Virus record (IMG/VR): IMGVR_UViG_2711768021_000003
Direction: 5' to 3' (one strand)
DNA: 9,514 nt
Origin: a virus
Taxonomy: Duplodnaviria; Heunggongvirae; Uroviricota; Caudoviricetes
The notes below the pieces were generated by a model. The model ran no database searches. It saw only the letters and a program-made list of their open reading frames with translations, and was not told the origin of the DNA. Numbering within the stretch: position 1 is the stretch's first letter; the number at the start of each line of letters is the position of its first letter. Shown piece after piece: positions 1 through 9,514 of the stretch. The translations under genes were made by a program, and so were the position numbers.

Positions 1-195
1 TGGGTTATCGCTCGCCACGGGAATATCTACGGCAGCAAGCCAGTAATGGGTTAAGTGATAACAGGTGTCTGGAAATATAGGGGCAAATCCAGCGTTCATC
101 AGCCCCCGCATTGCCGACAGGATCACAGACGGGGGGCGCAACTGGTTGTCGTTCAACTGGCCCAGCTACCGTTCTTGTATCAGAGGTGTGGCTGC

Positions 196-4179: not shown

Positions 4180-4271
4180 TGGGAATGTCTGACTCCTTAC
4201 CATCTCCTGTTCTGTGATGTTGTTTTGTTGCAGTTCCAGTGCTCTTTTTTCAGCACCAGAATGGTGCATTG

Positions 4272-4559
4272 NNNNNNNNNNNNNNNNNNNNNNNNNNNNN
4301 NNNNNNNNNNNNNNNNNNNNNNNNNNNNNNNNNNNNNNNNNNNNNNNNNNNNNNNNNNNNNNNNNNNNNNNNNNNNNNNNNNNNNNNNNNNNNNNNNNNN
4401 NNNNNNNNNNNNNNNNNNNNNNNNNNNNNNNNNNNNNNNNNNNNNNNNNNNNNNNNNNNNNNNNNNNNNNNNNNNNNNNNNNNNNNNNNNNNNNNNNNNN
4501 NNNNNNNNNNNNNNNNNNNNNNNNNNNNNNNNNNNNNNNNNNNNNNNNNNNNNNNNNNN
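4272..4559. other. Run of 288 N (masked or unsequenced)
   Basis: Literal n characters. Hides the 5' part of the holin gene and its upstream region. Confidence 1.
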
Positions 4560-4661
4560 ATTGGTGTGCTGGGAAGTCTGCTTCTGGGGCTTCTGACTTA
4601 TCTGACAAATCTGTATTTCAAAATAAGAGAAGACAAGCGTAAGGCTGCGAGAGGTGAATAA
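4560..4661 (+). CDS. S: Holin, class II pinholin (phage 21 S21-like), 3' fragment; 5' end lost in N-run
   Basis: Visible C-terminus '[33 protein letters not shown]' matches the second TMD and charged tail of S21-type pinholins. Stop TAA overlaps the ATG of the downstream SAR endolysin (TAATG). Confidence 0.7.
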
Positions 4662-5022
4662 TGTCGCCATCATTACGCAAGGCTGTTGCAGCTGCTATTG
4701 GTGGTGGGGCTGTTGCTATAGCATCTGTGTTAATCACTGGCCCAGGTGGTAACGATGGTCTGGAAGGTGTCAGCTACATACCATACAAAGATATCATTGG
4801 TGTATGGACTGTATGTCACGGACACACCGGAAAAGACATCATGCTCGGTAAAACGTATACCGAAGCAGAATGCAAAGCCCTCCTGAATAAAGACCTTGCC
4901 ACTGTCGCCAGACAAATTAACCCGTACATCAAAGTCGATATACCGGAAACAACGCGCGGCGCTCTTTACTCGTTCGTTTACAACGTGGGCGCTGGCAATT
5001 TCAGAACATCGACGCTTCTTCG
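4661..5022 (+). CDS. R: SAR endolysin (T4-lysozyme-fold muramidase, phage 21 R21 / P1 Lyz-like); 3' end lost in N-run
   Basis: N-terminal Gly/Ala-rich signal-anchor-release segment '[20 protein letters not shown]'; catalytic E-x8-D-x5-T triad in '[16 protein letters not shown]'; '[15 protein letters not shown]' core. The track ORF 4661..5320 is an artefact of reading the N-run in frame into Rz. Confidence 0.8.
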
Positions 5023-5143
5023 NNNNNNNNNNNNNNNNNNNNNNNNNNNNNNNNNNNNNNNNNNNNNNNNNNNNNNNNNNNNNNNNNNNNNNNNNNNNNN
5101 NNNNNNNNNNNNNNNNNNNNNNNNNNNNNNNNNNNNNNNNNNN
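5023..5143. other. Run of 121 N (masked or unsequenced)
   Basis: Literal n characters. Hides the endolysin 3' end and the Rz/Rz1 5' ends. Confidence 1.
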
Positions 5144-5320
5144 GCAGTCTGTCAGTCAGTGCGTGAAGCCACCACCGCCTCCGGCGTGGATAATGCAACC
5201 AGCCCCCGACTGGCAGACACCGCTGAACGGGATTATTTCACCCTCAGAGAGCGGCTGATGACGATGCAGATGCAACTGGAAGGGGCACAGGAGTATATCC
5301 GCACTCAGTGCATTAAGTAG
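5144..5320 (+). CDS. Rz: Rz i-spanin, C-terminal part (5' end lost in N-run)
   Basis: 'AVCQSVREATTASGVDNATSPRLADTAERDYFTLRERLMTMQMQLEGAQEYIRTQC' is nearly identical to the C-terminal third of lambda Rz. Confidence 0.75.
   Translation, partial: AVCQSVREATTASGVDNATSPRLADTAERDYFTLRERLMTMQMQLEGAQEYIRTQCIK
5145..5258 (+). CDS. Rz1: Rz1 o-spanin, C-terminal part, embedded in +1 frame of Rz
   Basis: 'QSVSQCVKPPPPPAWIMQPAPDWQTPLNGIISPSESG' matches the proline-rich mature region of lambda Rz1. The lipobox and signal peptide are in the N-run. Confidence 0.7.
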   Translation, partial: QSVSQCVKPPPPPAWIMQPAPDWQTPLNGIISPSESG

Positions 5321-5362: not shown

Positions 5363-5713
5363 ATGCCATCACTAATCCCACGTGCCTGCCGTAAGCGTGG
5401 ATGTGCAGGTACAACCACAGACAGTTCGGGTTACTGCGATAAACATCGCGGTGAAGGCTGGGTGCAGCACCAGCGCGGACTGAGCCGCCACCAGCGTGGC
5501 TATGGCTCAAAATGGACGGTGATTCGTGCCCGTATTCTGAAGCGCGATAAAGGTCTGTGTCAGTTGTGTCTGCGTGTCGGTGTGGTGAGCGAGGCGAAAA
5601 CCGTCGACCACATCATCCCGAAAGCGCATGGCGGAACAGACGCAGACAGCAACCTGCAGAGTCTGTGCTGGCCCTGCCATAAAGCGAAAACAGCGCGCGA
5701 ACGAATCCGGTGA
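5363..5713 (+). CDS. HNH endonuclease (packaging-associated, HK97 gp74-like)
   Basis: ATG 5363 with GAGGTA 5 nt upstream. Cys-rich N-terminus (CRKRGC...CDKH) and HNH core 'VDHIIPKAHGGTDADSNLQSLCWPCHKAKT'. Located immediately upstream of TerS/TerL, as in HK97-like phages. Confidence 0.8.
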   Translation: MPSLIPRACRKRGCAGTTTDSSGYCDKHRGEGWVQHQRGLSRHQRGYGSKWTVIRARILKRDKGLCQLCLRVGVVSEAKTVDHIIPKAHGGTDADSNLQSLCWPCHKAKTARERIR

Positions 5714-5735: not shown

Positions 5736-5795
5736 GGGGCGGGGCAAATCCCTGTGACCTGACGTCTTCCGGACTGCCCGCCCCATCGTTTTTTT
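5736..5795. other. GC-rich inverted repeat plus T-run in the HNH-TerS intergenic region; candidate cos-region element or rho-independent terminator
   Basis: GGGGCGGGGCA (5736-5746) pairs with TGCCCGCCCC (5775-5784) with one bulge; 28-nt loop contains the palindrome GACGTC; followed by T7 (5789-5795). Confidence 0.3.
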
Positions 5796-5834
5796 ATACC
5801 CGCGAAAAATGAAATTTAACCAGGAGTGCCGCAT

Positions 5835-6329
5835 ATGGCTGGAACGGCGGGGCGTTCCGGGCGTCGCCCCAAGCCAACGGCGCGCAAGGCGCTGGCCGGA
5901 AACCCCGGCAAGCGAGCCCTGAACAAAGATGAACCTGTTTTTACGCCCATCAAAGGTGTTGAGCCACCAGAGTGGTTCGCTGAAGAAGATCTCCCTCTCG
6001 CCACGATCATGTGGCAACTGACAACCAAAGAACTCTGCGGTCAGGGCCTGCTGTGCGTGACTGACCTGGCGGTACTTGAGCGGTGGTGCGTGGCCTATGA
6101 GTTCTGGCGACGTGCCGTGAAAAATATTGCCATACAGGGCAACACCATCACCGGTGCAATGGGCGGCAGGGTCAAAAATCCGGAGCTGACCGCCAAAAAA
6201 GAACAGGAGTCCGAGATGAGCAGCACGGGGGCAATGCTCGGACTCGACCCCAGCAGCCGCCAGCGTCTGATTGGCCTGGCGGGGCAGAAGAAAGCCACTA
6301 ACCCGTTTCTGAAAATTATCGAATCATGA
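5835..6329 (+). CDS. Terminase small subunit (P27 family, HK97 gp1-like)
   Basis: ATG 5835 with AGGAG 8 nt upstream (the track GTG at 5826 is too close to the RBS). N-terminal '[26 protein letters not shown]' is the signature of P27-family small terminases. Stop overlaps the TerL start (ATGA). Confidence 0.8.
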
Positions 6330-8059
6330 GCCGGAAATCTTACCCCAACGTAAATGCTGCAAATCAGTATGCCCGGGATGTCGTGCGCGGAAAGATTGTT
6401 GCCTGCCAGTTTGTGATTCAGGCCTGCCAGCGCCATCTTGATGACCTGATGGCGGAAAAAAGTAAGTCGTTTCGTTACCGCTTCGACAAGGACCTGGCTG
6501 AACGGGCCGCGAAATTTATTCAGCTGTTGCCGCACACCAAGGGGGAGTGGGCATTCAAACGGATGCCCATCACGCTGGAGCCGTGGCAGCTATTTGTGAT
6601 CTGCTGTGCGTTTGGCTGGGTCAATAAAGGCACCCGGTTGCGCCGCTTCCGGGAGGTGTACACCGAAATCCCCCGTAAGAACGGCAAATCAGCAATCTCT
6701 GCCGGTGTTGCCCTGTATTGTTTTGCCTGTGATAACGAGTTTGGCGCGGAAGTGTATTCCGGTGCCACGACAGAGAAACAGGCGTGGGAAGTCTTTCGCC
6801 CGGCGCGACTGATGTGTAAACGCACACCCATGCTGACGGAAGCGTTCGGGATTGAGGTTAACGCCTCAAACATGAACCGTCCGGAGGATGGCGCGCGGTT
6901 TGAACCGCTGATCGGCAACCCAGGTGATGGTTCATCACCCCACTGTGCCGTGGTTGATGAATATCACGAGCATGCCACCGATGCGCTTTATACCACAATG
7001 CTTACCGGGATGGGGGCGCGACGTCAGCCACTGATGTGGGCCATCACCACCGCCGGGTACAACATTGAGGGGCCGTGCTACGACAAGCGGCGGGAAGTCA
7101 TCGAGATGCTCAACGGCTCGGTGCCTAACGATGAACTGTTCGGGATCATCTATACCGTTGATGAAGGTGACGACTGGACCGGCCCGCAGGTGCTGGAAAA
7201 AGCCAATCCAAATATTGGCGTGTCGGTTTATCGCGAATTTTTGTTAAGTCAGCAGCAGCGTGCGAAAAATAACGCCCGTCTGGCAAACGTCTTTAAAACA
7301 AAACACCTCAATATCTGGGTGTCGGCGCGTTCGGCGTATTTCAACTTGGTGAGCTGGCAGAGCTGCGAGGATAAATCACTGACCCTTGAGCAGTTCGAGG
7401 GGCAGCCGTGCATTCTGGCCTTTGACCTGGCGCGTAAGCTGGATATGAACAGCATGGCGCGACTTTATACCCGCGAGATTGACGGTAAAACGCATTACTA
7501 CAGTGTGGCCCCGCGTTTCTGGGTACCGTATGACACGGTGTACAGCGTCGAGAAAAATGAAGATCGACGGACAGCCGAACGCTTTCAGAAATGGGTGGAA
7601 ATGGGCGTTCTGACCGTTACCGATGGTGCGGAGGTGGATTATCGCTACATCCTCGAGGAGGCCAAAGCGGCGAACAAAATCAGCCCGGTCAGTGAGTCAC
7701 CCATCGACCCCTTCGGGGCGACCGGGTTGTCACATGACCTTGCTGATGAAGACCTGAATCCCGTCACTATCGTCCAGAACTTCACCAATATGTCCGATCC
7801 GATGAAAGAGCTGGAAGCAGCGATTGAATCGGGACGTTTTCATCATGACGGCAATCCCATCATGACCTGGTGTATCGGCAACGTGGTCGGCAAAAACATG
7901 CCGGGTAACGATGATGTGGTGAAACCCGTCAAAGAGCAGGCGGAAAACAAAATCGATGGTGCAGTTGCGCTGATTATGGCGGTTGGCAGAGCCATGCTGT
8001 ACGAGAAAGAAGACACGCTGTCTGACCACATTGAGTCCTACGGGATCCGCTCGCTTTAA
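6326..8059 (+). CDS. Terminase large subunit (Terminase_1 family, HK97 gp2-like)
   Basis: 577-aa ORF translationally coupled to TerS. ATPase-like N-terminal half ([16 protein letters not shown], Walker-B-like CAVVDEYHE) and nuclease-like C-terminal half ([12 protein letters not shown]). Confidence 0.9.
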
Positions 8060-8070
8060 CTGAGGTAATT

Positions 8071-8253
8071 ATGATCATGCTGATTCTCGCGCCTCTGGTG
8101 GGCGTGCTGGGTGCGCTTTTGCTGGCGTATGGTGCCTGGCTGATTTATCCCCCGGCGGGTTTTGTTGTTGCCGGGGCGCTGTGCCTGTTCTGGTCGTGGC
8201 TGGTGGCGCGATATCTCGACCGTACACGGCAGTCTGTCGGCGGAGGTAAATAG
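8071..8253 (+). CDS. Small hydrophobic protein, two predicted transmembrane helices, unknown function
   Basis: ATG 8071 with GAGG 5 nt upstream, 11 nt after the TerL stop. '[60 protein letters not shown]' is 60 aa with two hydrophobic segments and a charged tail. Stop TAG overlaps a GTG that has a strong GGAGG RBS (candidate portal start). Confidence 0.45.
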
Positions 8254-9409
8254 TGTTCTTTTCGGGATTATTTCAACGAAAAAGCGATGTGCCGGTGACC
8301 ACGCCAGCAGAACTGCTGATGCTATCGGGCTGTCATACGACACCTATACCGGAAAGCGGATCAGTAGCCAGCGGGCCATGCGCCTGACGGCGGTCTATTC
8401 TTGCGTCAGGGTGCTGGCAGAGTCTGTTGGTATGCTGCCCTGCAGTCTCTACAAAATCAGCGGTACCCTGAAAACACGGGCGGTGGATGAACGACTGCAT
8501 AAGTTGGTTTCGGCAAAACCTAATGGCTACATGACACCGCAGGAATTCTGGGAGCTGGTTATTGTCTGCCTGTGTCTACGGGGGAATTTTTACGCCTACA
8601 AGGTAAAGGCACTGGGAGAAGTGGTGGAGCTTCTTCCGATAGATCCGGGCTGTGTGGAACCGAAGCTGAACAGCCAGTGGCAGCCGGTTTATCAGGTGAC
8701 GTTTCCGGATGGTTCCGTGGATGTGTTGACCCAGAATGAAATCTGGCATGTGCGCACCCTGACGCTGGATGGACTTGTCGGGCTGAATCCCATTGCGTAT
8801 GCGCGTGAGGCCATTTCACTGGCAGCGGCAACCGAGGAGCACGGTGCCAGGTTGTTTAGTAATGGTGCGGTGACATCCGGTGTGTTGCGTACGGAACAAA
8901 AGCTCACGCCGGATGCTTACGAGCGTCTGAAGAAAGATTTTGAGGAGTGTCACACGGGGCTTGGCAATGCTCACCGCCCGATGATTCTGGAAATGGGGCT
9001 GGACTGGAAGTCGATGGCGCTGAACGCCGAGGACAGTCAGTTCCTGGAAACCCGCAAGTTTCAGCTGGAAGAAATCTGTCGTCTGTTCCGGGTGCCGTTG
9101 CACATGGTGCAGAACACCGATCGCGCCACCTTCAACAATATCGAAGAGCTGGGGCTGGGATTTATCAACTATTCACTGGTGCCGTATCTGACCCGCATCG
9201 AACAGCGGATCAACACCGGACTGGTACGAAAAAGTAAGCAGGGCGTTTATTACGCCAAATTTAACGCCGGGGCGTTACTGCGCGGGGATATGAAGTCCCG
9301 TTTTGAAGCCTACGCCACCGGGATCAACTGGGGAATTTACTCTTCCAATGACTGCCGCGACCTGGAAGATATGAATCCGCGTCCCGGTGGTGTAATGCCG
9401 ATCAGTTAA
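8253..9409 (+). CDS. Portal protein (HK97 family) with an apparent -1 frame break near 8327-8330
   Basis: Main ORF (frame of 8162, through 9409) carries portal motifs 'AMRLTAVYSCVRVLAESVGMLP' and 'GLNPIAYAREAISLAAATEEHGARLFSNGAVTSGVL'. The best start is GTG 8253 (GGAGG at 8242-8246) but it is in a different frame that stops at 8385-8387. The two frames join if the GGG run at 8327-8329 is read as GGGG. The unambiguous in-frame part is 8378..9409. Confidence 0.7.
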
Positions 9410-9442
9410 GGATCAGTTGACCGATCCAGTGGCTGTGTAAGA

Positions 9443-9477
9443 ATCCGGAAACGCTCACTTGTTTCCGGATTTTTTTA
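9443..9477 (+). terminator. Rho-independent terminator downstream of the portal gene
   Basis: Perfect 10-bp stem ATCCGGAAAC (9443-9452) / GTTTCCGGAT (9461-9470), 8-nt loop, then TTTTTT (9471-9476). Confidence 0.65.
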
Positions 9478-9514
9478 TGCACATTGGACAGGCTCTTGAT
9501 CTGGTATCCCGTTA

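Follow-up and report, generated by a model that had tools for sequence, protein, structure and literature searches.

A portal pseudogene with two lesions in a phiP27/SfIV-like prophage remnant of Shigella sonnei

Introduction

Why should the beginning of a phage portal gene lie in one reading frame, and the rest of it in another? The question is raised by a 9,514-nt sequence from a tailed phage (Caudoviricetes; IMG/VR record IMGVR_UViG_2711768021_000003), which we refer to in its entirety as ‘the window’. An intact gene for the large subunit of terminase, TerL (6326–8059; 577 aa; Pfam TerL_ATPase and TerL_nuclease on the identical product), is followed here by a gene for a 60-aa ymfR-like small membrane protein (8071–8253)—the equivalent is annotated as ymfR, or as a membrane protein, in phiP27, ST64B and E. 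coli—and then by a portal gene whose first codons and whose body are out of register by one base. These genes, and the portal and IS4 features described below, all lie on the + strand. The original prediction, made from the sequence by itself, traced the split to a run of three Gs and offered two accounts of it: a real inactivating mutation that left the prophage defective, or a homopolymer error of assembly.

The answer, we believe, is decay. The window is almost certainly part of a broken-down, phiP27/SfIV-like prophage remnant of Shigella sonnei, and what it carries is the 5′-end of an HK97-family portal gene made into a pseudogene twice over, by deletion of a single base at 8315 and by insertion of IS4.

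The portal gene and its start

A GGAGG ribosome-binding site (8242–8246) precedes GTG 8253 by a 6-nt spacer, and the TAG stop codon of the ymfR-like gene (8251–8253) overlaps this GTG by 1 nt (ATAGTG). This geometry, on which the original prediction based its choice of start, reads in the sequence just as it was described, and the GGAGG is invariant in all five of the sequences that we aligned, namely the window and four annotated, intact portals: those of phage phiP27, Shigella phage SfIV, Salmonella phage ST64B and the E. coli A36 prophage. In the annotations of phiP27, SfIV and A36 the portal begins at the GTG that corresponds to 8253, and in that of ST64B it begins in the same frame but one codon earlier; none of the four uses the equivalent of ATG 8378, the start that would have spoken against GTG 8253 had the relatives shared it. 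The portals of phiP27 and SfIV translate as uninterrupted proteins of 413 aa, beginning with a stretch of 21 residues (letters not shown). Residues 1–21 of the 8253 frame (V/MFFSGLFQRKSDVPVTTPAEL; 8253–8314) match the intact portals at 20 positions of the 21, far beyond chance, and bear out the suggestion that this frame encodes the portal N-terminus. GTG 8253, these comparisons confirm, is the true portal start.

Beyond codon 21 the two frames part company, and they do so in the layout foreseen. The 44-codon ORF that opens at GTG 8253 (8253–8387) continues with an out-of-frame tail (8316–8387) to a TGA stop codon at 8385–8387; an exact look-up of the 44-aa product in the protein collection returned no record, which is to say no gene with exactly that product. 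The portal itself goes on in the –1 frame, which is open from 8162 to 9409 and carries, otherwise uninterrupted, portal codons 22–380 (8316–9392). The first ATG of the portal body, at 8378, is Met43 of the true protein, and lies four codons ahead of the AVYSCV motif. It is here that most gene callers begin, and what they call is an ORF of 343 aa (8378–9409) that stops inside IS4, with an IS4-encoded tail, VMPIS.

With the missing base restored, the portal matches the Pfam Phage_portal profile (PF04860) with E = 2.6e-107 and 359 bits, against a cut-off of 39.1, its residues 47–373 aligning to positions 2–321 of the 321 in the profile. The phiP27 orthologue matches the solved HK97 portal (8cez/8fql) with E = 1.5e-53, residues 17–387 against 31–405. 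The upstream context, too, is that of head-morphogenesis modules—HNH, TerS, TerL, ymfR, portal—and the protease and capsid genes that lie downstream in phiP27, SfIV and A36 are absent here because of IS4. What we did not find is a single uninterrupted frame for the whole of the portal: the frame is shifted at 8315, and 33 C-terminal codons are lost to IS4. Judged by its sequence, the window portal is a pseudogene derived from the HK97-family portals (PF04860), then, rather than a working member of the family.

The break would seem to be a young one. For the G-restored portal, dN/dS is 0.04 against phiP27 and 0.10 against SfIV, and in the first 42 restored codons 7–8 synonymous substitutions stand against 2 non-synonymous ones. 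Changes unique to the window lineage number 11 synonymous and 4 non-synonymous (A13V, D162N, R233C and P365S), so the portal was constrained until recently; these ratios argue for purifying selection that acted on it until shortly before it was broken.

A single-base deletion at 8315

When the window is aligned, as DNA, with the four intact relatives, it displays exactly one gap. Where the relatives have GAGCTGGCGGA, the window has GAACT-GCTGA; the base is missing between T8314 and C8316, and the G at 8315 is the survivor of an ancestral GG (CTGGCT in the relatives, CTGCT in the window) at the boundary of codons 21 and 22. The GGG run at 8327–8329, where the original prediction placed the lesion, with ...AELLMLSGLSYD... 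as the restored reading, is unchanged in all five of the aligned sequences. The lesion dinucleotide lies 12–14 nt upstream of this run; the predicted site was off by roughly 13 nt, and the frame should be restored to read ...TTPAELADAIGLSYD..., instead. With a G put back at 8315, the translation runs ...TTPAELADAIGLSYDTYTGKRISSQRAMRLTAVYSCV..., and across the join every residue agrees with SfIV and ST64B. A G added at 8327–8329 joins the frames as well, but LMLS then results where all of the homologues have ADAI or AEAI.

Is the ancestral allele still to be found? A scan of viral contigs, using a pattern that allows either allele, turned up a single contig (L021) that has the same local haplotype but both of the Gs (GAACTGGCTGATGC), its frame open through the site; the change was thus a plain single-base deletion on an existing allele. 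Exact-pattern scans of species-representative genomes, for the deleted 40-mer and for the either-allele pattern, found no match. That collection, we infer, holds one genome per species, and no separate representative of S. sonnei, and its silence has no bearing on the lesion.

Mutation or error

Might the missing base be an error of sequencing or assembly, instead—a homopolymer miscall in a gene whose 5′-end is truly intact? The thought is a natural one. The window has N-runs, some related assemblies are noisy with indels, and assemblies built with the guidance of a reference could inherit a mistake from it. The site, however, is a GG dinucleotide and no homopolymer run; we found no homopolymer of at least 4 bases near 8315, the nearest being TTTT at 8259 and AAAAA at 8279. 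And the sequence is the same in every independent assembly examined. Several complete chromosomes, among them CP000038.1, the chromosome of S. sonnei Ss046, match the window at 100% identity outside its N-runs. Over the 168 nt from 8253 to 8420 there is not a single difference among 14 distinct NCBI assemblies (CP000038 included) and 6 IMG/VR contigs, independently made. The carriers of this stretch include complete chromosomes and short-read draft contigs that break at IS4, and de novo short-read contigs (L012–L014) speak against inheritance from a reference. Portal variation was nil across the loci examined. In the protein collection, where an exact look-up of TerL led to complete chromosomes and draft contigs, that protein is indexed in 4305 blocks; for the truncated product of 343 aa, likewise exact, the count is 1695 blocks.

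The N-runs, which the original prediction took as hints of imperfect assembly, turn out to be nothing of the kind. Those at 4272–4559 (288 N) and 5023–5143 (121 N) stand in place of 655 and 420 defined bases, respectively, in complete chromosomes that are otherwise 100% identical. They are masks laid over defined sequence, therefore, not gaps in the assembly, and are no sign of its quality. Underneath them lie the region of a 98-aa ORF and the start of the holin gene in the one case, and the 3′-end of the lysozyme gene and the 5′-half of Rz in the other; the 219-aa ORF at 4661–5320 is an artificial lysozyme–Rz fusion formed across such a run.

Indel noise does occur among the related assemblies. 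In one of them (L018; JBEAAD010000003.1) TerS, TerL, recN and other genes are in pieces; in another (L010) the run of five Cs in ymfR at window 8149–8153 is short by one; and a third (L008) is cited alongside these two, at window 5805. The indels of L018 and L010 look like long-read errors, or else like real homopolymer variants. The portal lesion, in contrast, is invariant and lies outside homopolymers, and even L018, visibly noisy elsewhere, carries the same one. We give the sequencing-error explanation practically no credence. Of the two accounts first offered, the inactivating mutation in a defective prophage survives, and the homopolymer error does not, the sequence being the same in all of the assemblies examined and the site being no homopolymer. 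That the deletion is real, we have little hesitation in proposing; the case rests on agreement among assemblies, which is strong but indirect.

Can the frames be rejoined?

A gene in two frames might still yield a whole protein if ribosomes were programmed to shift from the one frame to the other, and in this way a full-length portal could continue to be made. The geometry would permit it, and the geometry only: a back-slip of one base between 8315 and 8385 gives a complete N-terminus. But slips anywhere other than at 8315 introduce non-homologous residues, and no slippery heptamer of the X XXY YYZ form was found in the 8253 frame (8253–8387). The two-frame layout is present in no intact homologue, all of them being single-frame, and a frameshift would in any case rescue a portal whose C-terminus, together with all of its partner genes, has gone too. 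A programmed –1 frameshift is vanishingly unlikely, in our view.

Reinitiation needs a little more thought. Start codon 8378 and stop codon 8385–8387 overlap as ATGCGCCTGA, an arrangement that would allow some reinitiation at the ATG by ribosomes that terminate at the TGA. The ORF that they would then enter is otherwise without stops, and its product (residues 43–380, plus VMPIS) keeps the whole of the Pfam portal domain, residues 47–373. Might this fragment have been retained for use by the host? Several observations say otherwise. ATG 8378 has no Shine-Dalgarno sequence before it; Met43 sits within the first stretch of conservation with the HK97 portal; and the partner genes are absent. The identity of the ORF among isolates carries no weight, since the portal is invariant across the loci examined, and the pattern of 11 synonymous to 4 non-synonymous changes is explained by constraint before inactivation. 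Retention of the fragment strikes us as very improbable.

We give no better odds to one particular form of this idea. A fragment made by coupled reinitiation, and so without N- and C-termini, could conceivably be kept by S. sonnei as a dominant-negative poison of portal rings, active against superinfecting phages of the SfII/SfIV/phiP27 kind. It would be, if true, a defense made from a decayed structural gene.

The IS4 insertion

We return, instead, to the portal as a pseudogene, which bears a second lesion. Portal sequence ends at 9392. At 9393 the left end of IS4 begins (TAATGCCGATCAG...; 9393–9514) and continues past the edge of the window; it is 100% identical to the annotated ends of IS4 (insG) in many E. 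coli genomes, and in two related sequences (L008 and L020) that extend farther a 442-aa IS4 transposase follows, in which the domains Nterm_IS4 and DDE_Tnp_1 are recognized. Translated across the junction, the portal frame passes from ...NPRPGG into VMPIS and then stops, with the loss of the last 33 portal codons.

IS4 duplicates 11–13 bp of its target upon insertion. The 12-bp sequence GTCCCGGTGGTG lies to the left of IS4 in the window (9381–9392), and to the right of IS4 in a different genome, at 4197–4208 of scaffold L027 (IMGVR_UViG_2663762996_000003), where the junction at 4197 reads ...GGCATTA/GTCCCGGTGGTGATGTC; in intact SfIV it occurs once. We used L027 for this right junction alone. 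A single N at 2819 joins two contigs within it, and a 386-bp portal/protease segment is duplicated (2431–2818 and 4197–4584) with differences between the copies: GGTGGGGATG versus GGTGGTGATG, and C versus T at the equivalent of window 9344. Read at face value, L027 would combine the one-base deletion with an intact portal 3′-end and a full set of head and tail genes, and would thereby put the two lesions in order. We rejected this reading; the scaffold mixes two related prophages, and linkage across it is untrustworthy. The genome from which it came probably contains two related prophages, one with IS4 in its portal, plus head and tail genes, 98.5% identical to SfIV.

What lies on the far side of IS4 varies. 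In Ss046-like chromosomes IS4 is split by an IS3-family element, and bamE, recN, nadK and grpE come next; in the other context IS4 is intact, and is followed by raiA, pheL and pheA. Two right flanks imply that further IS-mediated rearrangement took place after the insertion. In the chromosomes examined, no protease, capsid, connector or tail genes come after IS4.

The remnant and its decay

The remnant as a whole has a true length of ∼13 kb, and its parts are ordered IS, DnaB-like helicase, RusA, Q, ORF6N, holin, lysozyme, Rz, HNH, TerS, TerL, ymfR, broken portal, IS4. The first of these, at window positions 1–92, is the end of an IS element that adjoins the DnaB-like helicase gene. Read in the opposite direction, it has 93% identity to the IS3-family element found within IS4 in Ss046-like chromosomes. 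With this element on one side, and IS4 at 9393 on the other, the remnant is bounded by IS at both ends. At the loci examined, the gene calls within 10 kb on either side of the 343-aa portal ORF include none for a capsid, tail, integrase or repressor; host genes follow.

Not everything in it is ruined. A cos-like sequence (CTGCCCGCCCCATCGTTTTTTTATACCCGCGA), close to the annotated cos of phiP27, is present at ∼5774–5805, between the HNH gene (5363–5713) and TerS (5826–6329), and so the packaging signal and both terminase genes look intact, even though the head genes have gone.

How might matters have come to this? Ancestrally the portal was one frame that ran from GTG 8253. One G of the GG at 8315 was lost, presumably by ordinary replication error, and the frame shifted after codon 21. 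Ribosomes that start at GTG 8253 would now make a peptide of 44 residues that ends at 8385–8387, and never reach the other 359 portal codons, which lie in the –1 frame. Separately, whether before or after that loss, IS4 inserted after 9392 and removed the last 33 codons, and an IS-associated rearrangement probably carried away the late genes—prohead protease, capsid, connector and tail. Under relaxed selection, the deletion could simply have drifted to fixation. Both lesions are present in every chromosome and contig examined that reaches them, and both thus appear to be fixed in the lineage.

It follows that the frameshift is one of several independent inactivating events, and that the defect is overdetermined. 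In one of its two accounts the original prediction made the frameshift the cause of the defect, but IS4 cuts the portal after 9392, and every downstream head and tail gene is absent from the chromosomes. Taken as a whole, that prediction was right about the split and its geometry, wrong about the place of the lesion, and missed IS4 altogether. The element, with so many of its parts gone, would be unable to build particles. All of this is ordinary gene decay, not unusual biology, and nothing about it is new in kind.

Relatives and comparable systems

The phages phiP27, SfIV, SfII, SfI and ST64B are temperate phages of enterobacteria with HK97-family portals (P27p38 in phiP27, gp03 in SfIV and sb4 in ST64B), and the window resembles them closely. 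As in those phages, the order is HNH–cos–TerS–TerL–ymfR-like membrane protein–portal, and the portal has its GGAGG, starts at a GTG and overlaps by 1 nt the stop codon of the gene before it. Its portal is 87–93% identical to theirs at the nucleotide level, and has the Phage_portal domain and the homology to HK97 in common with them. It differs in its deletion at codon 21/22, in the loss of its last 33 codons to IS4, and in having no protease, capsid or tail genes thereafter. The window is also something of a mosaic. From 5800 to 9392, the whole TerS–TerL–portal stretch is 94.9% identical to SfIV and 82.9% identical to phiP27, whereas the portal alone is closer to phiP27 (92.6%) than to SfIV (87.2%), which suggests a recombination joint near the boundary between TerL and the portal. 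E. coli, which we considered as the source, was set aside: over ymfR and the portal, identity to complete E. coli genomes reaches 93.7% at most, and E. coli sequences served as intact comparators only.

The closest described analogue is e14, the cryptic prophage of K-12-type E. coli. It, too, has a partial terminase–ymfR–portal order, and the portal start overlaps the stop codon of ymfR by 1 nt; its portal is annotated as a pseudogene without a C-terminus, and it is a non-inducible remnant, 86.7% identical to the window over 8000–8657. The two have broken in different ways. The e14 portal breaks off after ∼136 codons, at a deletion that fuses it to a fragment of a baseplate gene, and TerL is truncated as well; the window, in contrast, has an intact TerL and 380 codons of portal, damaged by a frameshift and by IS4.

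Genome decay driven by IS elements is well documented in Shigella species (Hawkey et al. 2020; PMC7373316), and the window fits the pattern: an IS3-family end at 1–92, IS4 at 9393, a further IS inside IS4 in Ss046-like chromosomes, and a pseudogene made by a small indel. It adds one more case of an S. sonnei prophage broken down by small indels and IS activity, a process for which good documentation already exists.

Annotation

The chief value of these observations lies in annotation, for none of the three versions of this locus in the public records shows the true gene, with its GTG 8253 start and its two lesions. The versions concern 8162–9409 (L011 5840–7084; L005). One is a 414-aa protein that starts at TTG 8165 and overlaps ymfR by ∼89 nt (CP000038); the second, in most assemblies, is the 343-aa protein that starts at ATG 8378; and in the third (CP104423) there is no product at all. 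The TTG 8165 start is spurious, and the database proteins of 414 aa and 343 aa are both artefacts of gene calling on a pseudogene. A literature search for a description of the portal frameshift, or of a pseudogene here, found no paper.

Programs that call prophages by counting matches to terminase and portal could overrate the completeness of an IS-bounded remnant such as this. Prophage regions resembling phiP27 that S. sonnei genomes have in common have been listed, and in a survey of S. sonnei 75/02 by PHAST several short ones, of 10–15 kb, bear the label ‘intact’ (PMC5447701). If one of these regions is the remnant described here, the label is misleading.
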